Assembly (NCBI RefSeq): GCF_054482525.1
Contig: NZ_CM137006.1
Length of the DNA: 64,000 nucleotides
Direction: 5' to 3' (one strand)
Shown here: positions 45,626 to 58,610 of the stretch, in pieces
Layout of the letters: each line of letters begins with the position of its first letter
How positions within the stretch are numbered: position 1 is the stretch's first letter
Translations under genes and position numbers: made by a program
Notes under the pieces: generated by a model
What the model was told of the DNA's origin: nothing
The model's input: the letters and a program-made list of their open reading frames with translations, nothing else
Databases searched by the model: none

Positions 45626-46858
45626 TTACTTCAGACAGTGAGTTTCCCATTCCTTGACTGCAAATGTATCCATCATACCTGAAATATAGTCAACCACTGC
45701 TCGTTTTTTGCTGATTTCAAATATACAGGAATCTGGTTGGGGTAAGGTGAATTTAAGTTCAGGAGGCAGAAATTTATAATTCTCTCCTTCATTGTAAAAG
45801 TCATATAAATCCCTGATTATTTTATTTCCCCTGAACTCATAGGTGAGGATATTACGTTTTCGCATGATGACTTTAAAGAGAAGTTTTTTGAGTCCTTCGG
45901 ATAACGCATTCAGTTTCCCGAACCCCAGTTCCTGAAAACCATTCAGGTTCGTTACTACAGAAATATCTGCAACGAGGCGATTGACAATATTTGAAGTTAA
46001 CTCCTTGCGGAATATGATGGCAAATTCTTCTGAGGTTTTCAGTAAGTTAGCCTGAAAAGCGGTGTTTCTCGACTGAGTAACGATTTCCCTGAACTGTTCC
46101 CTCGCTCCCCGGAATTCGTCAGAAATCTGAAACTCATATTCAATATCTTCAATCGTGACCATGTTCCTGCTAAGGGCATCTTCCAGGTCATGCGCGGCGT
46201 AGGCAATCTCATCCGCGAGATCCATTATCTGCGCATCAATCGTTTTCTCTCCGGGATTCAGATCGAGCTGATTTTCAGCAAGCAGGTTAATGTAAAAATA
46301 GTAATCATCATCATAAATGAACTTGCCGGCAGTAGCTGCAGCGCGGGGGATGGGATACTTAACAACCGAAAGTAAACTACGGTGAGTCAGATTTAATCCG
46401 TTGCAGTATGAAAATTTCTTCTCCAGTTTTCTCAGGATACGTAGCGCCTGTGCATTACCTTCATAGCCGCCGATTTCTTCAGACAGTTCATTAAGCAGTT
46501 TTTCACCGGAATGACCGAAAGGAGGATTTCCGATGTCATGCGCCAGCGCTGCCAGTTCAACCACCACCGGGTTAATCAGTTTGAGGTCTGACGCGATACT
46601 TCGGGCGATCTGAGCAACCTCAAGACTGTGCGTTAATCTGTTTCTGTTGAATTTTTCAGGATCAATTTCAAAAAGTTGCATCTTTCCCTGCAGCCTGCGA
46701 AATGATGATGAATACAGAATACGCGCGTAATCCCGTTGATAATTATCCCGGCTTCTTGTTTCACCATCGGGGGACGGGTGCTCTCTGGTATCAGCAAGCG
46801 CACTGATAAGTTTTTGTTCCTGCTCTTGCGCAAATTCTTTTAATTCATTGCAGTACAT
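45626..46858 (-). CDS. HD-domain dGTPase-like deoxynucleoside triphosphate triphosphohydrolase
   Basis: Motifs YQRDYARILYSSSFRRLQGKMQLF, RLTHSLEVAQIARSIA, LAHDIGNPPFGHSGE typical of Dgt-family enzymes; start at second Met (RBS-like AAGGAAG upstream); AT-rich. Confidence 0.75.
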   Translation of the reverse strand: MYCNELKEFAQEQEQKLISALADTREHPSPDGETRSRDNYQRDYARILYSSSFRRLQGKMQLFEIDPEKFNRNRLTHSLEVAQIARSIASDLKLINPVVVELAALAHDIGNPPFGHSGEKLLNELSEEIGGYEGNAQALRILRKLEKKFSYCNGLNLTHRSLLSVVKYPIPRAAATAGKFIYDDDYYFYINLLAENQLDLNPGEKTIDAQIMDLADEIAYAAHDLEDALSRNMVTIEDIEYEFQISDEFRGAREQFREIVTQSRNTAFQANLLKTSEEFAIIFRKELTSNIVNRLVADISVVTNLNGFQELGFGKLNALSEGLKKLLFKVIMRKRNILTYEFRGNKIIRDLYDFYNEGENYKFLPPELKFTLPQPDSCIFEISKKRAVVDYISGMMDTFAVKEWETHCLK

Positions 46859-47008
46859 ATTTCTTCCTTTCTGGAGCATGTTACCAAATCAGAATACCGG
46901 ATGAACAAAACTGGTGGCTACATCCTGTAGGGATTATGTATTAGTAAGCTCTGGCCATTAGTGCCATTTCAGGTTATGTGATCCTACCCACGTAATATGG
47001 ACACAGGC

Positions 47009-47875
47009 CTAAGCGAGGTTCTTGTTTTCAAATTGTTCCGGACTGAGGCCGCCACACCAACTGTGCCGCCGCCACCGATTGTAATCACATTCGATATAAT
47101 TAAACACCGTTGCCCGCATTATTTCCCGGCTGATAAAGTGTTCTCCATGGATACATTCCACTTTCAGCGAATGAAAGAAGCTTTCCACGCAGGCATTATC
47201 GTAGCAGCAACCTTTTGCGCTCATACTTCCACGCAGATTATGCCGCTTCAGTTGCGCCTGATAATCTGCTGAACAGTACTGGCCTCCACGGTCCGTGTGA
47301 ACGATAACGTTCCGGGGCCTCTTACGCCGCCACAGCGCCATCTGCAGGGCATCGCAGGCCAGTTGCGCCGTCATGCGTGGCGACATTGACCAGCCAATAA
47401 CGGCACGTGACCACAGGTCAATGACCACTGCCAGATACAGCCAGCCTTCATCTGTACGTAAGTACGTGATGTCTCCTGCCCACTTCTGGTTCGGGCCACT
47501 GGCGTAAAAATCCTGCTCCAACAGATTTTCTGACACAGGCAGGCCGTGTGCGCGGTAGCTGACCGGGCTGAACTTCCGGGAGGCCTTTGCCCTCAGTCCC
47601 TGACGGCGCAGGCTTGCCGCCACGGTTTTTACGTTAAAGGGGTAACCCTGAGCACGCAGTTCATCCGTCAGGCGTGGGGCACCGTAACGCTGTTTTGACC
47701 GGGTAAAAGCCGCGAGGACAACGCTGTCGCAGTGTTGGCGGAACTGCTGACGCGTGCTTATCCTTGTCCGCCGCTGACACCACGTATACCAGCCGCTGCG
47801 GGCCACCCGGAGCACGCGGCACATTGCTTTGATGCTGAACTCAGCCTGATGTTTTTCAATAAAGACATACTTCAT
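47009..47875 (-). CDS. insF: IS3 transposase OrfB
   Basis: 288-aa product matches IS3 OrfB as recalled. Confidence 0.9.
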
Positions 47876-48170
47876 TTCAGACGATTCGCAAAGTATGTCG
47901 CGGCCTTTTGGAGGATAGCCAGTTCCTCTGCCTGCTCCGCCAGTTGCCGCTTCAGGCAGGCATTTTCAGCGGCCAGTTCACTTTCACGCTCTGACGAACT
48001 CATTTGTTGCTGCAGTTTGCTGCGCCACGCATAGAGCTGTGATTCATACAGGCTGAGTTCACGGGCTGCGGCAGCAACACCGATGCGTTCAGCAAGTTTC
48101 AGGGCTTCACTGAGAAATTCAGGCGAATGCTGTTTACGGGGTTTTTACTGGTTGATACTGTTTTTGTCAT
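47871..48170 (-). pseudogene. insE: IS3 orfA with a 1-bp deletion in a poly-A run near codon 9
   Basis: Translation from ATG at 48170 gives MTKTVSTSKNPVNSIRLNFSVKP*; element is 1257 rather than 1258 bp; no minus-strand ORF >=60 aa in the track here. Confidence 0.6.
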
Positions 48171-48337
48171 GTGAGTCACCTCTGACTGAGAGTTTACTCA
48201 CTTAGCCGCGTGTCCACTATTGCTGGGTAAGATCAAGTCTTACTTACCCTGTGAACCATGTTGATATTGATACTATATTGACTATATGCCATACAGGTGG
48301 TAATGATTAGTTACTACCATACAGGAAAAGGTAGAAA

Positions 48338-49318
48338 ATGACTCTTTTGGTAACGGCTGAGTGTGTTGACGATCTGATAAACGATGTTCATCAAGCTATC
48401 CTAGCGGATGGACTCAGTAACGATCCTACAAAAGGATCAACTCTAGAGATTCTTGGTGCCTATCTTGTCCTTACCGACCCCCGCCGAAGAATAAGTAGAA
48501 CAGAATCCCGAGGAAAACTAATTAGTTGCTTAGGTGAATTTCTGTGGTATCTCTCAGCTCAGAACGATCTTGAGTTTATAAAACACTTCATACCACGTTA
48601 CGCTGAATCCGCTGAGTCAGATGGGAAAATACATGGTGGTTACGGGCCACGGTTGTTTAATATGCGTGGTTTATATAATCAGCTAAAAAATGTTATCAAC
48701 CTTTTGCAGGAGAAAAAACCTACCAGACGTGCAGTAATACAGCTTTTCGATGCCTCAGACTTGGTGCCCTCAAAAACTGAACAGCGAGAATACGTAGATA
48801 TTCCTTGTACAATATCTATGCAGTTTATTGTCAGATGTGAAGAGCTGCATCTATTTGTTTGTATGCGTTCTAACGATGCCTTTATGGGGCTGCCTCATGA
48901 TGTATTTGCGTTCACGATGCTACAGGAATTAGTTGCCCGCTTGATAGGATGCGAATTGGGTCACTATCATCACTTTGTATCCAGCCTACATCTCTATAAA
49001 AATGATTTAGAAAAAGTGAAGGCTCTTCAGAAAGAGGGGTTCATGAGCACCCTACCAGTCATGGGATCGATGCCTGAAATGCATTCCTTAGATGATATCT
49101 TACCCCTGCTTGAGGCAGAAAAAGCTCTTCGAGAGAATAAGGAATTTGATATTGACACTACTTCCTTGAATGACTACTGGAAGGATTTATTGCGTATATT
49201 AAAAATCCACTTTTTGTTACGTTCACATACACCCAACCACAAAGGACTAGCCTTCCAAGAGTTGGCTGCAATGAAAAATCAGGAATATCGGTTTATTTTT
49301 GAAGGAAGACTACAATGA
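48338..49318 (+). CDS. thymidylate synthase-fold protein (ThyA / dNMP hydroxymethylase family) with ~90-aa C-terminal extension
   Basis: Aligns by eye to ThyA: GSTLEILGAYLVL, ISCLGEFLWYL, LYNQLKNVINLLQEKKPTRRAVIQLFDASDL, DIPCTISMQFIV (Cys at catalytic position), CMRSNDAFMGLPHDVFAF, HLYKNDL. Confidence 0.7.
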   Translation: MTLLVTAECVDDLINDVHQAILADGLSNDPTKGSTLEILGAYLVLTDPRRRISRTESRGKLISCLGEFLWYLSAQNDLEFIKHFIPRYAESAESDGKIHGGYGPRLFNMRGLYNQLKNVINLLQEKKPTRRAVIQLFDASDLVPSKTEQREYVDIPCTISMQFIVRCEELHLFVCMRSNDAFMGLPHDVFAFTMLQELVARLIGCELGHYHHFVSSLHLYKNDLEKVKALQKEGFMSTLPVMGSMPEMHSLDDILPLLEAEKALRENKEFDIDTTSLNDYWKDLLRILKIHFLLRSHTPNHKGLAFQELAAMKNQEYRFIFEGRLQ

Positions 49319-50259
49319 AAAGACATAATCAAATCAGTCAGCTGGTTAGTAATTTGCAAAATTTTAGCCGCAATGAACACAACCTAAATGGCCTAAGTTC
49401 TCCTGCCTGCTTTGATGTTTTAGCCTGTCAGATTATCGACAGTATACGTCGTATACGCTATGTGGAAACTCTTGCATTACGGACCGATTATATGACTCCG
49501 TTACGAAAAGAGCCGAATTCTGATGTTTTTGATCCTCTCCGCGCTGCCTGCCTTTATCTTCGTGACAACAATTACGATGAAGCCTGCTGGCTGGTTTTCC
49601 TTGCCACACATTTCGGCAAGAGTAACAAAACCGGCTGGATTTTGTGTCGAGATATATACAGTGGACTCGGTACACAAACGTGGACATGGGATACGATAAC
49701 TGATGACTTTGCTGCTTTTGAACAATGGTTCGCCAGCGTCTCTGATGAGTTGACAGCTAACAGTAGCCTAAGACAATATGGTAACCATCGGAAATATGAA
49801 ACGAAGAAATATCACTCTCGTCGTTCAATACCTGCGGTTTTTCGCTCTTACATCGGATTCATTGGTGCTACACACAGTCATGAGGCTAGGTTTGCAGAGG
49901 CCAAGAGCTTTTCATCTTCACCAGAATCTTTATTCGAACTATTGTATTCAGGGCTAAATGCCGTGATCTCATTTGGACGAACCGCAAAATTTGATTACCT
50001 AACTATGCTCAAGAAAACGGGACTTCTGGATGTAGAGCCGGGTCATGCTTTTCTGAATGGAGCAACCGGGCCCCTTCAAGGAAGCCGGCTACTTTTCAGC
50101 AATAGCCGGACTGCTGGTGACACAATAGACGTATTGAATGAAAAACTAGCTGACCTTGCGGCAATTATTCCTGCACCCTACTTGAGAATGCAGGTTATTG
50201 AAGATGCGTTGTGCAACTGGCAGAAATCACCTGACCGTTATGTCTATTTCGGCGGCTGA
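49315..50259 (+). CDS. uncharacterised protein co-operonic with the TS-fold gene
   Basis: 314-aa ORF overlapping upstream gene by 4 bp (ATGA); no motif I can assign. Confidence 0.5.
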   Translation: MKRHNQISQLVSNLQNFSRNEHNLNGLSSPACFDVLACQIIDSIRRIRYVETLALRTDYMTPLRKEPNSDVFDPLRAACLYLRDNNYDEACWLVFLATHFGKSNKTGWILCRDIYSGLGTQTWTWDTITDDFAAFEQWFASVSDELTANSSLRQYGNHRKYETKKYHSRRSIPAVFRSYIGFIGATHSHEARFAEAKSFSSSPESLFELLYSGLNAVISFGRTAKFDYLTMLKKTGLLDVEPGHAFLNGATGPLQGSRLLFSNSRTAGDTIDVLNEKLADLAAIIPAPYLRMQVIEDALCNWQKSPDRYVYFGG

Positions 50260-50261
50260 TA

Positions 50262-51344
50262 TCAGACGATATCTTCTTTACGGAATCTCACTTTAAACCG
50301 ATTAAGGTGAGAAAAAGGTATATTACCTTCATGCTGCAAATATCCCAGTACGATCCCTTTGGATACCCCCATTTTCCTAGCTAACCGGATGATCTCTTTC
50401 CAATGCCGGACACCATAGCGACTAAGTTGCTGCCGGTATTCTTCTGGGATAAGAACATCAACGGCAAATTTATCTGCTTCCTTTTCCTCTTCCGACGAAA
50501 GACTATCTTTACCTTCTACGCGAACTCGGACAGCTTCATGCAAGATGAGATGCCCAATCTCATGAAACAGCGTAAACCAAAAATGGTCATCGGTCAGATA
50601 ACGGAAACTCATGACTAGGGTTGCGCGATCTGGTGTAAAAAAGCAGGTAGCACCACTTGCCCGACATCCCTTTGGCGTTGGCAACACAACGAGAGAAACT
50701 CCAGCAGTGGCGAGAAGGTCGCGAATGTAAGGGATAAAAATCCTCATGTCGGGTTCATTTGTAGCTTTGCGCAGTTCTGGCAACAATGCTATCAGCCCCT
50801 CTTTATCCCATACAGCACAGTTTTGGTTTGAGGTAAGTTGTGCAGCCCTAGTCAGCCACACCAAATCGGCCATAGGCTCGGTTGCCAGATTAAGAGATTT
50901 ACGAAAAGCGACCAAAGGAGCATCTGACTGAATTTTATAAAAAAAATCATTGACGGAATTTATTCCGAAAAACGATAGGCAGTGCTGGAATTTACTTTCC
51001 CGAGTTGTAGTTTTGGGGATCCAACCAAACTCCATCATATCACGTACAGGCAATGATTCGAGCCAATCATTATTCACTTTCTCGAGGTATCCAATTTGCT
51101 GGCGATAAGCGACTTCGCGCTTGATCCAGAAGTCTGTCGATACGTTGAATAACTCCTCAAGCTTACAAGCCAGAGACTCATTGAGTCGGATTTTTCCTTC
51201 AAGAAGTTGCTGACCCCGGATAAGAGACAATCCAATCCTCTTACTCAGTTCTTCACCAGAAAGCCCATGTTCATCCATTAGATCTATAATTGTATCACCG
51301 GGTGGAGATACCCAGTCAGGCTGGAAGTCCTGCGTAACTATCAT
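50262..51344 (-). CDS. XRE-family HTH fused to ImmA/IrrE-type zinc metallopeptidase (HigA-like antitoxin/regulator)
   Basis: N-terminal HTH (IIDLMDEHGLSGEELSKRIGLSLIRGQQLLEG), C-terminal HEXXH (FTLFHEIGHLILHE); overlaps upstream small gene by 4 bp. Confidence 0.65.
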   Translation of the reverse strand: MIVTQDFQPDWVSPPGDTIIDLMDEHGLSGEELSKRIGLSLIRGQQLLEGKIRLNESLACKLEELFNVSTDFWIKREVAYRQQIGYLEKVNNDWLESLPVRDMMEFGWIPKTTTRESKFQHCLSFFGINSVNDFFYKIQSDAPLVAFRKSLNLATEPMADLVWLTRAAQLTSNQNCAVWDKEGLIALLPELRKATNEPDMRIFIPYIRDLLATAGVSLVVLPTPKGCRASGATCFFTPDRATLVMSFRYLTDDHFWFTLFHEIGHLILHEAVRVRVEGKDSLSSEEEKEADKFAVDVLIPEEYRQQLSRYGVRHWKEIIRLARKMGVSKGIVLGYLQHEGNIPFSHLNRFKVRFRKEDIV

Positions 51345-51667
51345 TTCACGTCACCTATGAACACTAACCGTATCCGGCTAACTCGGGACCAGTTAATTGT
51401 ATTATCTTGATTTTTGGGCTGAACTGTATTCCCACAGACAAATCCCATTTTTACATCACCGAGAATGGTAATTGTAATACACTCTTCCCCATCCTCAAAG
51501 CAGACCTCCGGCGAACCTACGGGCAACAGTAATATGTTGTCTGTCACGGAAAGATCGGAAAGTCGCGAGCGTAGTCTTGATGCCACTTTGTCACCAAAGA
51601 TCTCATTTGCCTCATGCATACTCTCGCAAATAGTCCTTAACTTCTTGCTTTGAAAGGTAATGAACAA
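51341..51667 (-). CDS. HigB-like (killer-protein family) type II toxin candidate
   Basis: 108 aa; N-terminal KKLRTICESMHEANEIFGDKVASRLRSRLSDL resembles HigB-family pattern; toxin-first gene order. Confidence 0.5.
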   Translation of the reverse strand: MFITFQSKKLRTICESMHEANEIFGDKVASRLRSRLSDLSVTDNILLLPVGSPEVCFEDGEECITITILGDVKMGFVCGNTVQPKNQDNTINWSRVSRIRLVFIGDVK

Positions 51668-51810
51668 AATTATCCACTTTTATTTTTCTTGGTTGCTACG
51701 TTTATAGCAAACTCAACGCTCATTCACAAAATGAGATGTAGCGAATTAATGGACTCTGCACATATTAAATGTTAATGATGGACTTAAAATCACGGATTCG
51801 TAAGGGAAAC

Positions 51811-52077
51811 ATGAAAGGTAAACATCAAGACACTAAAGCCCTGTCTGACGTGCTAGCGGAAATGCAACGGCAGGATGCCAAATGGGGGGCAGACCGTAAT
51901 CAAGATCCTTTTATCTGGGGAGCGATTCTCGGAGAAGAGGTGGGAGAATTTCATCAGGCTGTCCTCCATGATCGTTTTGGTGGTAAAGCAGCCGGTACCA
52001 GTAGGGAGGAAGCAGTACAAATTGCTGCTGTTGCACTGCAAATCATCGAATATTATGATCGCGTAATAGATCGATAA
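51811..52077 (+). CDS. small MazG-like NTP pyrophosphohydrolase-like protein (tentative)
   Basis: AILGEEVGEFHQAV and REEAVQIAAVALQIIEYY resemble the MazG EExGE helix pair; start at internal Met of ORF 51769..52077. Confidence 0.35.
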   Translation: MKGKHQDTKALSDVLAEMQRQDAKWGADRNQDPFIWGAILGEEVGEFHQAVLHDRFGGKAAGTSREEAVQIAAVALQIIEYYDRVIDR

Positions 52078-52261
52078 ATTAGAATTAATCAACTAAGAGT
52101 CTTTTACACGCGAAGATGAACTCTGGCAGCCATCTACCTTCGTGGGCCTGTAGAACACATCTAATTGCAATACTCCCAGTTAATCACTAACCAGCCTCTC
52201 CAGTAAGGCTGGTCGATTAGGTTTAATTAAACAGATATAACAAGCAATTCACTTGGTATTA

Positions 52262-52335: not shown

Positions 52336-52930
52336 ACGGTGCAAAAGTGGCTCTTCCGCAACCTAGGTGGAGATTTTCATGCCAGTGGACTCATTACCCT
52401 CTGCCTAAGTAGTTCAAATCCGGCTCGACCATACATCAGATGTTTCAGCATCTTCAGGCGATTTACATGACCTTCGACAACACCGTTACTCCAGCGGCTG
52501 CTGGTTGCCTCACATATAGCCGCAGCATCAGCTTCCATCCCCGCAGCCACGCGCCGAAGTTCTGCTGAACCGTTTTCGTGGACTCGAGTGAACCAACTGC
52601 TTAGATTTGATTTATTTGGGGTTTTCAGAATACGGTAGAACTCAAGTACTAGTTGCTGCGCTATTTTCAGCGCCGGTTCTTTTTCACACATCAGACTAAT
52701 AAATCGGGAAGCATAATTTTCTTCACCCCTGATTATTATCCAGGGCATCAACCAGCGGCTTACCCGGGACACTGAAGGAAGTCTGGCGGCAGTAGTAACT
52801 GGTGGGTTCCAGCCTTTACGCCATTTGGCAACAGCATCCCTGACGATGGTTTCACTGCCTGTAACCCCCGGGCCACCATTTCCCGCCATATCCAGTCGCT
52901 GGTGTGCTGAATTGGTCATGTATGAAGGAA
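52336..52930 (-). mobile_element. ISL3-family IS remnant (3' part of transposase gene and one terminal repeat)
   Basis: ORF 52377..52919 ends with ISL3-type C-terminus WSNGVVEGHVNRLKMLKHLMYGRAGFELLRQRVM; terminal sequence ggctcttccgcaa at ~52336. Confidence 0.55.
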
Positions 52931-53495: not shown

Positions 53496-56400
53496 TTGAT
53501 GGAGCAGTCTCTCAATTTTGAAATGTTGCGCAGCCAGTGGCCGGAACTGGCTGAACTCGCGTGTATGGCGGAACGCTATGTTCACTCCGATCCGGAAAGT
53601 TGTCTGGTCAAGCTGCGCAACTACACCGAATTGATGGTGCGCTGGTTGTATCGTCAGGAGCGGTTGCCGGAAGGTATTAAGGCTAATCTTTACGATTTAA
53701 TGAATGCTGATGTCTTTACCAGCATGATGCCGGAAGCCATCATCATGAAAATGGATGCGCTGCGTATCCATGGCAACCGTGCCGCGCACGGCGGACGTAT
53801 CAAAGCTAAAGATACTTACTGGCTGCTCAAAGAAGCGTATTTGTTGGGAATTTGGCTGTATGTTCGCTACGCCCACGGTAATGTTGATGACTGCCCCAAA
53901 TTTACACTCCCTCCATTAACACAATCTTCAGGTCGTGCAGATGAAAAACGTCTGGAAGATGCAATCAGGGCTCAGGATGAAAGCCGTGAGCGCGAACTGG
54001 CGCTGCAACGCGCACTACAGCAAGAACAGGAAAAGGCCGAACACCTCACTCAACGCCTGAATGAAGCCAGAGCGCGTAACCAGCATGTTGCCGATATTCT
54101 CTCTATTGATGAAGCGGAAACCCGCCGTCGCCTGATTGACTCTCGCCTGCTTGCTGCTGACTGGAATGTAGGCGAAGGCCTTAAAAATACCGATCAGGTT
54201 ACGCAGGAACATCCCGTTAAAGAACAACCTACCGCGACCGGAGACGGTTATGCGGACTATGTCTTGTGGGATGAGGCACACAAACCGCTGGCGGTGGTGG
54301 AAGCAAAAAAAACCAGCGTCAATGCCGAGCAAGGACGAATTCAGGCCCGGCTGTATGCAGACTGGCTGGAAAAAGAATACGACCAGCGTCCGATCATCTT
54401 CTACACCAACGGCTATGATATCTGGCTGTGGGATGACCATAAAACTCATGGTTATCCCCCGCGTCGGGTGTTTGGCTTCTACAGCAAGGAAAGCCTGCAA
54501 TATCTTATTCAACAGCGTGAAACCCGTCTTCCGCTGAACAGTGTGCCGCACGTAAAAGATAACGAAGGTAAGGCCGTTGCCGGACGTTTGTACCAGCTTG
54601 AAACCATTGCCCGTGTCAGCGAGCGGTTTACCAACAAATACCGGCAATCGCTAATTGTTCAGGCTACGGGTACAGGCAAAACCCGCGTGGCAATAGCGCT
54701 AAGCAAACTAATGATTGATGCCCGCTGGGTAAAACGCGTCCTGTTTCTTTGCGACCGCAAGGAACTACGTAAACAGGCGGCGAATGCCTTTAATCAATTC
54801 ACCAATGAGCCGCTGTATGTGGTCGGGAAATCGAAAAAAGCAGACAGGCAGAATGCTAGGATCTACATCGCCACCTATCCTGGTATGATGAAAATCATGG
54901 ACCATTTCGATGTTGGTTATTTCGATTTGATCATCGCCGATGAATCCCATCGCTCTATCTACAACGTTTACGGCGATCTGTTTAAGTATTTTGATGCCCT
55001 CCAGATTGGCCTGACGGCCACGCCGATTGACATGGTGAGTAAAACCACTTTCGGCCTGTTTGGTTGTGAAGGACGTATTCCTACCGCCAACTACAGCCTG
55101 GAAGATGCCATCGCCGATAACAATCTGGTTCCCTATGAGGTTGTCACGCACACCACAGAATTCCTGCGCGAAGGCATCAAACGGGAGAAATTAAGCGACG
55201 CACAAATCCGCGAGCTGGAAGAACAAGGCATAGATCCCAATACGCTGGAGTTTGATGGCAAGGCGCTGGATGAGGCGATCTACAACAAAGACACCAACCG
55301 CTATATCCTGCGTAACCTGATGGAAAATGGCCTGAAAGATCGGGACGGCCAGTTGCCAGGTAAAACCATCATTTTCGCCCGTAACCACAAACACGCGCTG
55401 CTGTTGAATGAATTATTCGACGATATGTACCCGCAGTTTGCCGGGCGCTTCTGCCAGGTCATCGACAATTACGATCCCCGCGCCGAGCAACTGATTGATG
55501 ATTTTAAAGGGCTGGATGAAAGCACCAACAAAGAGCTGACCATCGCTATCTCCGTTGACATGCTCGATACCGGTATTGATGTCCCGGAAATTGTGAATCT
55601 GGTCTTTGCCAAACCGGTCAAATCAAAAGTGAAGTTCTGGCAGATGATTGGCCGTGGTACGCGCCTCTGTCCGGGGTTGTACGGTTACGACGATAACGGC
55701 AAACCTCTGGATAAACAGAAATTCCGCATTTTCGATCACTGGGGCAATTTTGAGTATCACGAACTGCATACCGAAGAGGCCGAAGTCACAGCGACAAAAT
55801 CGCTTGCACAAAAACGCTTCGAAGCGTGGGTTATGCTGGGGGCCGCTGCGCAACGTAAATTCGACAAACAGGCGGTGGATTTAGTTGCTCACCAGCTACG
55901 CGAGCAAATCAATGCACTGGATGAAAAGTCGATTGCCGTCCAGGAAAAGTGGCATCAAAAAGCGCAGTACAGCGATGAAAAAGTGCTGCGCCAGCTTTCC
56001 CCGAAAACACAGCAGGATTTGCTATCTGTCCTGGCCCCGCTGATGCAGTGGCTGGACGTGCGCGGGCAAAGCGACGCTATGCGCTTTGATATGGATATTC
56101 TGGCGGCGCAAACTGCCCGTTATACCAACCCGGAAGAGCTGGATGTGCTCTGGCCGGTCATCGTCGAAAAAGTGGAGCGCCTGCCGCCGCATTTGGCGCA
56201 GGTCCAACAGCAAGGACCGCGGATCAATCAGCTTCGTGATTTAGGCTGGTGGAAGCAGGCCAGCCTGGAAGAGCTGGAAGATATCCGCATTCATCTGCGC
56301 GGCATCATGCACCTGATGGAAAAAGACGCGACGCCGAAATTTGGTTCGATACAGGTGGATATTACCGAAGATGCGAACCTGATTCAGACGGAAAACCGCA

Positions 56401-56912
56401 AAACCAACATCCGCTCGATTGACTTCAAACTCTATCGCCAGCAGGTGCAGGGAGCGCTGGAGCCGCTGTTCCAGCAAAATCCGGTGCTGAAGAAAATCCG
56501 CAACGGCGAGCCTGTGACGCAAAGCGAGCTGGATGAACTGGCTAAACTGGTGCTGATCCAGAACCCTAACGTTGATATCCGGGCACTGAAAGAGTTCTAC
56601 CCGCAGGCGACCGCCAGCCTGGATAAACTATTGCGTACCATCATCGGGATGGACAGCGACGCGGTGGAAGTGCGCTTTGCTCAGTTCGCCGCTGATAACA
56701 GCCTGACCAGCCAGCAATTGCGCTTCCTGTCATTGCTGAAAAACCACATTCGCGATTACGGCACCATTGAAATGCGGCAGCTCTTTGAACAGCCTTTTAC
56801 GCATATCCACAACGAAGGCGTTACCGGTGTGTTCCCTGATATAGAGCAGATCGCCCGCCTACAAAAGATAGTCGAAGAGCTGGGTGTTGTGACCGACGCA
56901 GCAACGGTATAA
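53496..56912 (+). CDS. hsdR: type I restriction enzyme R subunit (HsdR)
   Basis: 1138 aa; helicase motifs QATGTGKTRVAIAL and IIADESHRS; N-terminal domain typical of HsdR. Confidence 0.9.
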   Translation: MMEQSLNFEMLRSQWPELAELACMAERYVHSDPESCLVKLRNYTELMVRWLYRQERLPEGIKANLYDLMNADVFTSMMPEAIIMKMDALRIHGNRAAHGGRIKAKDTYWLLKEAYLLGIWLYVRYAHGNVDDCPKFTLPPLTQSSGRADEKRLEDAIRAQDESRERELALQRALQQEQEKAEHLTQRLNEARARNQHVADILSIDEAETRRRLIDSRLLAADWNVGEGLKNTDQVTQEHPVKEQPTATGDGYADYVLWDEAHKPLAVVEAKKTSVNAEQGRIQARLYADWLEKEYDQRPIIFYTNGYDIWLWDDHKTHGYPPRRVFGFYSKESLQYLIQQRETRLPLNSVPHVKDNEGKAVAGRLYQLETIARVSERFTNKYRQSLIVQATGTGKTRVAIALSKLMIDARWVKRVLFLCDRKELRKQAANAFNQFTNEPLYVVGKSKKADRQNARIYIATYPGMMKIMDHFDVGYFDLIIADESHRSIYNVYGDLFKYFDALQIGLTATPIDMVSKTTFGLFGCEGRIPTANYSLEDAIADNNLVPYEVVTHTTEFLREGIKREKLSDAQIRELEEQGIDPNTLEFDGKALDEAIYNKDTNRYILRNLMENGLKDRDGQLPGKTIIFARNHKHALLLNELFDDMYPQFAGRFCQVIDNYDPRAEQLIDDFKGLDESTNKELTIAISVDMLDTGIDVPEIVNLVFAKPVKSKVKFWQMIGRGTRLCPGLYGYDDNGKPLDKQKFRIFDHWGNFEYHELHTEEAEVTATKSLAQKRFEAWVMLGAAAQRKFDKQAVDLVAHQLREQINALDEKSIAVQEKWHQKAQYSDEKVLRQLSPKTQQDLLSVLAPLMQWLDVRGQSDAMRFDMDILAAQTARYTNPEELDVLWPVIVEKVERLPPHLAQVQQQGPRINQLRDLGWWKQASLEELEDIRIHLRGIMHLMEKDATPKFGSIQVDITEDANLIQTENRKTNIRSIDFKLYRQQVQGALEPLFQQNPVLKKIRNGEPVTQSELDELAKLVLIQNPNVDIRALKEFYPQATASLDKLLRTIIGMDSDAVEVRFAQFAADNSLTSQQLRFLSLLKNHIRDYGTIEMRQLFEQPFTHIHNEGVTGVFPDIEQIARLQKIVEELGVVTDAATV

Positions 56913-56975
56913 TACGCACATGACAAGCCCCGGCAGCGGGGCTTTTGTATTTAAAACAGGATATAAAAGCTAACA

Positions 56976-58610
56976 ATGATCACTGGTGACTTAAAAAGTA
57001 AAATCGACGGCCTGTGGGAAGATTTCTGGGTGGGTGGTATCACCAACCCGCTGACCGTAATCGAACAGATCACCTATCTAATGTATTCCCGGATGCTGGA
57101 TACTCAGGAACAACGCGACGAGAAGCGTAAACAAATCGCGGGTATTGATTTTAAACCGCGTTTTGCACCAGAACAGCAGGAGTTCCGTTTCAGTCACTAT
57201 AGCAATCTTGGCTCGGATGAGATGATGGAAGTGGTGCGCGATGGTGTATTCCAGCATTTTCGTCAGCTCGGCCAGGCTGATGCGTCGAAGGTAACGCTGC
57301 TGGGCAACTTTATGAAAGATGCCCGTCTGGAGATTGTTAAGCCTTCATTGCTGACCAAAGCGGTTGAGGTGATCAAAAACCTGCCATTGGATCGCGGCGA
57401 CACCAAAGGCGACCTTTACGAATACCTGTTAAGCAAGCTGACCACTGCCGGAATCAACGGCCAGTTTCGCACACCGCGCCACATTATCCGCACGATGGTT
57501 GAAATGATGGAGCCGAACCCCGCCCGCGGCGAGACGATTTGCGATCCGGCCTGCGGCACCGGTGGCTTTCTGGCAACCAGCTATGAATATCTACTGGAGA
57601 AGTACAGCTCGCTGGAATCCATTCATACCGAGATTGGCACCAACGAACGTGGTGAGCTGGAAGAGCAAAAAATCTTTACCGGCGATCTGTTGACCCCGTG
57701 GCGTAACCATGTGGATAACAATATGTTCCACGGTTACGACTTTGACACCACAATGTTACGTATCGCCGCCATGAACCTGATTATGCACGGCGTGGAAGCG
57801 CCGGATATCCACTATCAGGACACCATGAGCCAGAGCTTCAGCACAAACTTCCCGCAGGCCAGTAAAAACGCTTTCAACCTGATTCTGGCAAACCCGCCGT
57901 TTACCGGTTCACTGGACGAAGAAGATATCGACTCCACGCTGTCGGCAATGGTGAAAACCAAAAAAACCGAACTACTGTTCCTGGCGCGTATTCTGCAAAT
58001 GCTGAAAGTGGGCGGGCGCAGTGCCACTATCGTGCCGCAGGGCGTGCTGTTTGGCTCCAGTAAGGCGCACCAGTCACTTCGCAAAACGCTGGTGGAAGAT
58101 AACCAACTGGAAGCGGTGATCAACCTGCCTTCCGGCGTATTTAAACCTTACGCTGGCGTGGCGACGGCGATCCTGATCTTTACCAAAGGCGGTCAGACGG
58201 ACGAGGTCTGGTTCTACGATCTGCAAAATGATGGCTACAGCCTGGATGACAAGCGTAACCCAATTAAAGACAACGACCTGCCGCATCTGCTGGCAAGCTG
58301 GAAGCATTACCGTACTTTACGCGGGCTGCCGGTTGATAACTTTATGGGTGAGAAGTTAGCCTCGTTGCTGAAACAGCAGTACCCGGAAGGGATTGATGCT
58401 GGCGTTGATTTTAAAGATCGCACTCAGGCGGCGTTTATAGTGCCAAAAGAAGATATTGCTGCCCAGAAATACGATCTCTCTATTAATCGTTATAAAGAAG
58501 TGGTGTATCAGGCTGAGGAGTATGAAGATCCGAAGGTGATATTGAAGCGGTTAAAAGATCTGGAAAAAGAGATTCTGGCGGATCTGGATGAGCTGGAGGG
58601 GATGCTGTGA
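56976..58610 (+). CDS. hsdM: type I R-M N6-adenine DNA methyltransferase subunit (HsdM)
   Basis: 544 aa; SAM motif [10 protein letters not shown] and catalytic NPPF. Confidence 0.9.

Follow-up and report, generated by a model that had tools for sequence, protein, structure and literature searches.

A HigB/HigA-derived gene pair

The stretch of DNA analyzed here (the window) is 64,000 nucleotides of contig NZ_CM137006.1 in NCBI RefSeq assembly GCF_054482525.1 and originates from an Escherichia coli chromosome. Between positions 50,262 and 51,667 its minus strand carries two overlapping genes, referred to as the small and the large gene, which encode proteins of 108 and 360 amino acid (aa) residues, respectively. 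This pair descends from a HigB/HigA toxin-antitoxin (TA) module and is obligately linked, with a fixed geometry and in at least eight phyla, to the genes for a thymidylate synthase (TS) homolog and an aGPT-Pplase3 protein. On balance, we regard it as a translationally coupled operon that forms the switch half of a four-gene cassette, whose function is most likely anti-phage defense. The features of the pair and of its borders are as follows.

51341..51667, minus strand: small gene, 108 aa, TTG start, first gene of the pair (open reading frame list and AlphaFold/Foldseek)
50262..51344, minus strand: large gene, 360 aa, ATG start; HigA-type XRE helix-turn-helix (HTH), M78 metallopeptidase of the ImmA/IrrE/CapP type and, between the two, a conserved region of about 150 aa
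51126..51284, minus strand: HigA-type HTH, residues 21-73 of the large protein (Pfam HTH_3, 23.9 bits, cutoff 23)
50349..50636, minus strand: Peptidase_M78 (PF06114), residues 237-332 of the large protein (42 bits, cutoff 22)
50550-50564, minus strand: HEIGH zinc motif, residues 261-265 of the large protein
51341..51344, minus strand: 4-bp ATGA overlap of the small gene's stop codon and the large gene's start codon
51668..51810, no strand: divergent intergenic region of 143 bp between the pair and a MazG-like gene
50257..50264, no strand: tail-to-tail junction of the pair with the aGPT-Pplase3 gene, the stops being 2 nucleotides apart (50260-50261)

The initial annotation of this DNA, in which no strand was given, had described two open reading frames (ORFs) of 108 and 360 aa with a 4-bp overlap, the larger one with an N-terminal XRE HTH and a C-terminal HEXXH motif. 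Both ORFs and their overlap were confirmed, and the HTH_3 and Peptidase_M78 models matched the large protein above their cutoffs, with the HEXXH motif reading HEIGH. The small ORF lies upstream of the large one and overlaps it, which is the toxin-first order of HigBA modules to which the same annotation had drawn attention.

The small gene

In the E. coli RefSeq record that was examined, the Prokaryotic Genome Annotation Pipeline (PGAP) placed no coding sequence over 51341-51667, probably because of the TTG start and the absence of a family model. Conservation of the small gene was assessed at 81 loci, which were the 80 with the most similar large protein when one genome per species was scanned (33-84% identity) and the locus of Serratia. 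All 81 carried a homolog of the large protein, with identities of 33-86%, and an ORF of the small family was directly upstream of the large gene in 77-81 of them. Thus, the possibility raised in the initial annotation that the small ORF is not conserved with the peptidase gene did not hold. The ratio of nonsynonymous to synonymous substitution rates (dN/dS) of the small ORF was 0.15-0.22 in comparisons with the orthologs of Serratia and Enterobacter, and an exhaustive comparison by HMMER with 1.84 billion cluster representatives yielded 641 matches at E<=1e-3, nearly all of which were 100-125 aa long. Given this dN/dS, the 641 representatives and the position of the homologs directly upstream of the large gene, the small ORF is a genuine gene and not a chance ORF; a conserved gene missed by standard E. 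coli annotation is hereby brought to light. Orthologs with identities of 78-94% were found in Citrobacter, Serratia and other assemblies, and the small gene was also identified at locus L001 (15046-15511).

No model of Pfam, NCBIfam, PADLOC or PHROGs matched the small protein of the window significantly, and searches of the PDB sequences with phmmer and profile hmmsearch returned noise only. Given the lack of a family-model match, the HigB kinship of the small protein surfaced through structure prediction. With an alignment of 114 diverse sequences as input, AlphaFold produced a model with a predicted local distance difference test score (pLDDT) of 94.5, whereas an earlier alignment of 9 close homologs had given an unusable pLDDT of 57. 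The modeled order of elements was one strand, three helices and four strands. The top Foldseek matches in PDB were all HigB of Proteus vulgaris, with a template modeling (TM) score of 0.73, target-normalized scores of 0.66-0.76 and a probability of 1.0, followed by YoeB, RelE (RelK) and YafQ. Moreover, 12 of the 114 family members matched Pfam HigB-like_toxin (PF05015) weakly, and hhalign aligned the small family with HigB over 75 columns at an E value of 3.5e-4 with a weak probability of 37%; the HigB sequence used for this alignment was checked against 4mct_B. The small protein is therefore predicted to possess a HigB/RelE fold, in agreement with the HigB-like character that had been assigned to it initially.

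The residues H54, D90, Y91 and H92 are taken here to be the catalytic residues of P. vulgaris HigB. No conserved counterparts of these four residues were found in the small family, with the C-terminal ones mapped by sequence and not by structural superposition. In the hhalign alignment H54 fell on a variable column, and the last five columns of the small-family alignment were variable and without a conserved Tyr or His. The residues that the family does conserve are F5, R11, C14, E15, G25, L32, R35, D38, G51, P53, N79-H80, W93 and R98, of which N79-H80 is replaced by G-N in the E. coli lineage. Because the HigB catalytic residues have no conserved counterparts, the small protein is probably not a HigB-type mRNase.

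The large gene

The large protein had 1396 homologs at E<=1e-10. Its N-terminal domain is of HigA type: a profile of 25 homologs matched the HigA structures 2icp, 4mcx and 6chv at E values of 2.5e-9 to 1e-8 through this domain, and the solved HigA structures matched include that of P. vulgaris. The NCBIfam model TIGR02607 (antidote_HigA) also matched the large protein (7.6e-5), although its score of 22.5 bits was below the cutoff of 47.7. The peptidase part of the same profile matched CapP (7t5t) at 0.007. The residues H261, E262, H265, H269, E277, E287 and E289 were invariant in the 25 homologs down to 38% identity. Given the invariance of these His and Glu residues of the metal motif, the M78 peptidase is probably active.

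Among the defense models of PADLOC, PD-Lambda-2_B (PDLC03982) matched nearly the entire large protein at 8.7e-30, from residue 15 to residue 341 of 360 and from position 60 to position 378 of the 402 model positions. The RmrA, CapP and Lit models covered just the peptidase domain or the region of the zinc motif. The matches of the CapP and RmrA models spanned 47-126 residues, and those of RmrA extended over residues 204-333 at most and often over residues 257-303 (E values of 4e-10 to 5e-5). PD-λ-2 was described in E. coli ECOR42 (Vassallo et al., 2022) and contains a HigB-like protein A and an Xre-peptidase fusion B, which is toxic alone and is neutralized by A (PMC9519451).

Linkage to two nucleotide-modifying genes

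The aGPT-Pplase3 gene was present in 77 of the 81 loci and the TS homolog in 73, and the loci without the full cassette were mostly on truncated contigs. The loci that possessed both genes were distributed over Pseudomonadota (alpha, beta and gamma), Myxococcota, Acidobacteriota, Chloroflexota, Bacteroidota, Gemmatimonadota and Verrucomicrobiota. In addition, a Leptospira plasmid carries the cassette, which makes Spirochaetota the eighth phylum. Two distant members of the small family (28-29% identity), which were looked up independently, also occurred in the same cassette.

The arrangement of the genes was equally constant. The pair and the aGPT-TS operon were convergent in 76 of 77 loci, with a median stop-to-stop spacing of 1 bp and a spacing within 20 bp in 70 of the 76. 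In 32 loci the spacing was negative and the 3' ends of the coding sequences overlapped by 4-20 bp. The 2-nt junction of the window is too short for a terminator; unless termination is intragenic, transcription of each operon must therefore run into the other. Within the pair, the small gene's stop codon overlapped the large gene's start codon in 74 of 81 loci (-4 in 33 and -8 in 24), and the ATGA overlap suggests that the two genes are translationally coupled. Moreover, the aligned first codon of the small gene was TTG in 49 of 81 loci; by the same procedure, TTG was found for the large gene in 2/80, for the TS homolog in 5/68 and for the aGPT-Pplase3 gene in 11/57. Together, the conserved TTG start, the stop/start overlap and the near-zero convergent spacing point to selected control of the ratio of small to large protein and of the coupling between the operons.

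The divergent intergenic region 51668..51810, which presumably holds the promoter and operator of the pair, showed a mean column identity of 87% among E. coli, Serratia and Enterobacter. Neither scans for consensus promoters and terminators nor searches for repeats near the pair exceeded chance, and no RNA family of Rfam matched between 47900 and 52400. The intergenic region of E. coli contains the palindrome TTGCTA-N6-TAGCAA, which was rejected, as it is not conserved in Serratia.

Partner and accessory genes

The genes that accompany the pair in the window, and one gene found in other loci, are as follows.

48338..49318, plus strand: gene of the thymidylate synthase superfamily, MilA-like (Pfam PF00303), annotated 'thymidylate synthase'
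49315..50259, plus strand: gene of the aGPT-Pplase3 / amino-acid:DNA-transferase family (Pfam PF18746, 4.8e-90), convergent with the pair
51811..52077, plus strand: MazG-like gene, 88 aa, divergent from the pair, all-alpha nucleoside triphosphate (NTP) pyrophosphohydrolase-like by its PGAP name
Locus L008, 9044-9847, minus strand: gene for a protein of about 270 aa, also found in 32 other loci

In searches against PDB, the TS homolog matched MilA, a cytidine monophosphate (CMP) 5-hydroxymethylase, at 1.6e-41 and the best true TS at 1.4e-18. It retains the catalytic Cys (C157) and has D188 at the position of Asn177 of TS. An Asp at this position is the cytosine-type signature. In addition, Arg130 and Ser178 occupy the positions of Lys133 and Ala176 of MilA. 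MilA acts in mildiomycin biosynthesis, and its A176S/K133R double mutant shifts its preference from CMP to deoxycytidine monophosphate (dCMP) (PMC5175136). Given its closeness to MilA, D188 and the presence of Arg130 and Ser178 as in the dCMP-preferring mutant, the TS homolog is probably a hydroxymethylase or methylase directed at dCMP and not a dTMP synthase. For the other enzyme, the characterized relatives are those of clade 2 of the aGPT-Pplase family, which move amino acids onto phosphorylated 5-hydroxymethyluracil (5-hmU) in DNA (PMC8989533). No kinase family, such as a 5-hmU DNA kinase, was conserved across the 81 loci.

The gene for the protein of about 270 aa was located between the aGPT-Pplase3 gene and the TS homolog in 33 of the 81 loci and is not part of the E. 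coli cassette. Its product contains motifs such as ATLGLNPSNREF, ACHLDLIPYAT and GFNHNIQSSFGVT; it had no match in Pfam, PHROG or the PDB sequences and no P-loop motif. These motifs may be reminiscent of the UDG superfamily. At a few loci, an extra XRE-HTH gene of about 112 aa was found on the opposite strand between this gene and the TS homolog (L009, 10224-10562, plus strand; L015, 4451-4792, plus strand; and L049).

The MazG-like gene was beside the cassette only in E. coli, Serratia, Enterobacter and one IMG/VR locus, and it was rejected as part of the cassette core, being restricted to this enterobacterial lineage. Its true start is 51811 and not 51769, because the longer frame contains a stop codon in Serratia. 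The MazG-like protein matched two PHROGs, neither of which has an assigned function.

Genomic setting

The 3.8-kb stretch from 48300 to 52100 was found in 255 of 5426 complete E. coli genomes and was at least 99% identical in 250 of these 255. The genes in this region are, in order, a dGTPase, a frameshifted IS3, the 'thymidylate synthase', a hypothetical gene, the 'XRE family transcriptional regulator', the MazG-like gene, an ISL3 remnant and a type I restriction-modification (R-M) system. The features that surround the cassette are as follows.

45626-46879, minus strand: dGTP triphosphohydrolase (PADLOC anti-phage dGTPase model, 1.5e-109)
About 47009-48170: frameshifted IS3 element, between the dGTPase gene and the cassette
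52377-52919, minus strand: truncated remnant of an ISL3-family transposase gene, between the MazG-like gene and the R-M system
53496-58610 and beyond, plus strand: type I R-M system (hsdR-like helicase, hsdM and hsdS)

Given that the dGTPase gene and the type I R-M system both flank the cassette, this region of the E. coli chromosome is a defense island. In a matching E. coli record, the R-M system is followed downstream by a gene for an AAA ATPase and then by a hypothetical gene. Serratia grimesii carries all five genes (those of the MazG-like, small, large, aGPT and TS proteins) next to proBA, with a flank unlike that of E. coli.

Distant relatives of the pair

Relatives of the pair with identities of 24-32% kept the two-gene form and had other neighbors. 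On plasmids of Streptomyces and Rhodococcus they were beside ThiF/multiubiquitin genes (L086 and L087, 2400-6100). In Deinococcus the relative was in the same operon as a Fic gene within an R-M locus (L088, 4667-7465), and in Paraburkholderia it adjoined a gene for a hypothetical protein of 161 aa. Relatives in prophages were located directly after the CI repressor gene (L105, L108 and L109), and in one locus a gene for a Piwi-domain protein (prokaryotic Argonaute, pAgo) was next to the pair (L113, 5941-9962). Because these distant relatives adjoin Fic, ThiF/multiubiquitin, pAgo or CI genes, the pair appears to be a portable, TA-like switch module that accompanies varied genes of conflict systems. 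Among 2.9 million viral contigs, relatives of the pair were rare and were found at 29 places, about 15 of which also had the TS and aGPT genes. Bona fide phage records contained only weak relatives of the pair, with identities of at most 28% over the full length.

Proposed function and alternative explanations

For the cassette as a whole, we infer binding between the two proteins of the pair, neutralization, a trigger, an effector chemistry and a role in defense as follows. A HigA-type antitoxin would have acquired a C-terminal M78 zinc peptidase, and its HigB-fold partner would have lost the canonical RNase residues. The HigB-fold protein, which would be weakly translated, would bind the HigA-like domain and hold the peptidase fusion quiescent, in parallel with the neutralization of B by A in PD-λ-2, and the complex of small and large proteins would probably repress its own promoter. 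A phage-derived cue would free or activate the peptidase, which would relieve repression and/or cleave a target and thus engage the nucleotide-modifying effectors. These would be encoded by the second half of the cassette, the convergent operon of the cytidylate-hydroxymethylase-like TS homolog and aGPT-Pplase3, to which some lineages add the protein of about 270 aa and the enterics the MazG-like gene. In addition, the near-zero convergent spacing may couple the halves of the cassette by transcriptional or antisense effects.

The wider cassette has already been flagged computationally by others, and the type of the pair is known from PD-λ-2. In DefensePredictor, this very TS protein, WP_000174035.1, has a log-odds of 7.6 and is listed as a 'predicted novel defense gene' (PMC13092281). 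Similarly, an aGPT-Pplase system is among its predicted, unvalidated systems, with one gene marked as being homologous to a known defense gene (PMC13092281).

Several points weigh against this proposal. The role of the cassette in defense is a computational prediction only (DefensePredictor, PMC13092281). The small protein and PD-λ-2A are from different RelE-fold families, so that the polarity of PD-λ-2 may not transfer to the pair studied here. The polar residues conserved in the small family (R11, C14, E15, R35, D38, H80, W93 and R98) may leave room for a catalytic activity of the small protein. The aGPT-Pplase is of clade 3 and is unaccompanied by a 5-hmU DNA kinase. In the control regions, consensus scans and alignment of 51668..51810 showed neither a clear promoter nor a conserved palindrome. 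Finally, a shared operator was looked for in 67 loci as the longest exact k-mer that the 150-bp upstream sequences of the small gene and of the TS gene have in common, in comparison with shuffled sequences. No shared exact-k-mer operator was found, as p<=0.05 was reached in 4.5% of the loci, which is the chance level, with the limit that degenerate operators escape this test. Given this result, any control of the enzymes by the pair may depend on convergent transcription or take place at the protein level and not rely on a common operator.

A more specific version of the proposal is tentative, and we hold it to be possible rather than probable. According to it, the HigBA-derived peptidase switch would, via overlapping convergent transcription and the weak TTG start, unleash the dCMP-hydroxymethylase-like enzyme and the clade 3 aGPT-Pplase, and these enzymes would deplete or alter the cytosine nucleotide pool or DNA during infection, which would constitute a new kind of anti-phage system. 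To our knowledge, depletion or alteration of cytosine nucleotides or DNA by such enzymes has been shown for no validated defense system.

An alternative that we consider unlikely is that the pair has no TA behavior and serves solely as a transcriptional switch like ImmR/ImmA, DdrO/IrrE or CapH/CapP. In this case the HTH would repress and, upon DNA damage or another signal of infection, the peptidase fused to it would cut either itself or its small partner, with increased expression of the enzyme genes as the only consequence. The M78 domain indeed matches the CapP and ImmA/IrrE models, and the occurrence of pair relatives with many effector modules is regulator-like. Moreover, when a stress signal arrives, the peptidases of such systems inactivate a repressor of the XRE type (PMC12828697). 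However, the effector operon is convergent and thus neither downstream of nor divergent from the promoter of the pair, the 67 loci yielded no shared operator, and PD-λ-2B, the closest tested relative, is toxic alone (PMC9519451). The initial annotation had suggested that the pair may control the neighboring nucleotide genes. As to linkage, this suggestion is well borne out (aGPT in 77/81, TS in 73/81 and convergence in 76/77), whereas transcriptional control of the TS operon by the HTH is not shown, because no operator common to both promoters was found.

A canonical HigBA addiction module is a yet poorer explanation and, in our judgment, quite improbable. Here the small protein would be a ribosome-dependent mRNA endonuclease toxin and the large protein its antitoxin and autorepressor, and the module would stabilize a mobile cassette or island. 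The toxin-first order, the HigB-like fold and the HigA-like HTH all fit such a module; the weak TTG start would hold the toxin below the antitoxin, the NCBI names of homologs mention HigA or killer proteins, and the cassette occurs in mobile contexts such as insertion sequence (IS) elements and plasmids. However, the residues of the HigB active site have no conserved counterparts in the small family, and the small protein of the window had no significant match among the toxin models of Pfam, NCBIfam or PADLOC. In addition, this explanation leaves unaccounted for both the invariant, apparently active peptidase and the same two enzyme genes tail-to-tail with the pair across eight phyla. The initial assignment to HigBA-type TA pairs accordingly holds for the HigB/HigA anatomy, but the polarity of small toxin and large antitoxin is doubtful, because HigB's catalytic residues have no conserved counterparts and the polarity is reversed in PD-λ-2, the only tested relative (PMC9519451). 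Overall, the initial interpretation was partly supported.

Finally, a role outside defense, such as modification of the cell's own DNA or nucleotides or production of antimetabolites derived from 5-hydroxymethyl-cytosine (as for mildiomycin and bacimethrin) with the pair as regulator or self-poisoning safeguard, is very unlikely: the closeness of the TS homolog to MilA of mildiomycin biosynthesis (PMC5175136), the clade 2 aGPT-Pplase enzymes, which are DNA base-modifying transferases (PMC8989533), and the rarity of relatives of the pair in viral contigs would agree with it, but the patchy, horizontally moved distribution (255/5426 E. coli genomes, another flank in Serratia, plasmids), the E. 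coli defense island and the high DefensePredictor score do not, and no further biosynthetic genes were conserved around the cassette.

Comparison with known systems

Similar to HigBA of the P. vulgaris Rts1 type, the pair has the toxin-first order, the HigB fold and the HigA-type HTH. Different from HigBA, the large protein has about 280 extra residues, which include the M78 peptidase, the catalytic residues of HigB have no conserved counterparts in the small family, and the small protein contains an insertion of 15-20 residues with a conserved Trp before the last strand.

The ImmA/ImmR, IrrE/DdrO and CapP/CapH systems and RmrA of RosmerTA are modular regulators or antitoxins of mobile-element and defense functions. 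As in these systems, an M78 HEXXH peptidase of the locus studied here would work with an XRE-type HTH; in this locus, however, HTH and peptidase are fused and have a HigB-fold partner. Neither a match to RmrT of RosmerTA nor a CD-NTase gene was found at the locus.

The combination of a TS-superfamily pyrimidine hydroxymethylase with an enzyme of the aGPT-Pplase family or another base-modification enzyme resembles the thymidine-hypermodification clusters of phages as well as DS-4. Different from the former, the cassette contains no 5-hmU DNA kinase, no pyridoxal phosphate (PLP) enzyme and no radical-SAM enzyme, its aGPT-Pplase is of clade 3 and not of clade 2, its TS homolog has the cytosine-type Asp, and it is mostly cellular and not phage-borne. 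Membership in a phage thymidine hypermodification pathway was therefore rejected, given the Asp at the Asn177 position, the clade 3 aGPT-Pplase, the lack of a kinase and a gene of about 270 aa whose product has no P-loop. DS-4, a validated DefensePredictor system, consists of a TS, a deoxynucleoside monophosphate (dNMP) kinase, a 5-hydroxymethyldeoxyuridine (5-hmdU) kinase and a TIR protein and has no HigB/HTH-peptidase pair (PMC13092281).

The similarities with PD-λ-2 are the HigB-like first gene, the HTH-ImmA/IrrE peptidase as the second gene, the TA-like character and the defense context. For defense, however, PD-λ-2 requires a third, P4-antitoxin-like gene C (PMC9519451), whereas no co-directional third gene is found here and the pair is followed by the aGPT-Pplase3 gene in convergent orientation. 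Moreover, PD-λ-2A is assigned to Pfam PF09907 (DefensePredictor Table S5), whereas the small family leans weakly to PF05015; neither PADLOC PD-Lambda-2_A nor PF09907 had any match among the small protein of the window and 114 family members. Because the locus has no third gene and its small protein comes from a RelE-fold family other than that of PD-λ-2A, it is best viewed as a relative and not a member of PD-λ-2, with kinship to B in sequence and to A/B in architecture. The clade described here, which is locked to two pyrimidine-modifying enzymes in at least eight phyla, ties a TA-like switch to a specific and tractable effector chemistry, and its E. coli-native cassette, found in 255 of 5426 complete genomes, offers a means of validating a computational defense prediction.

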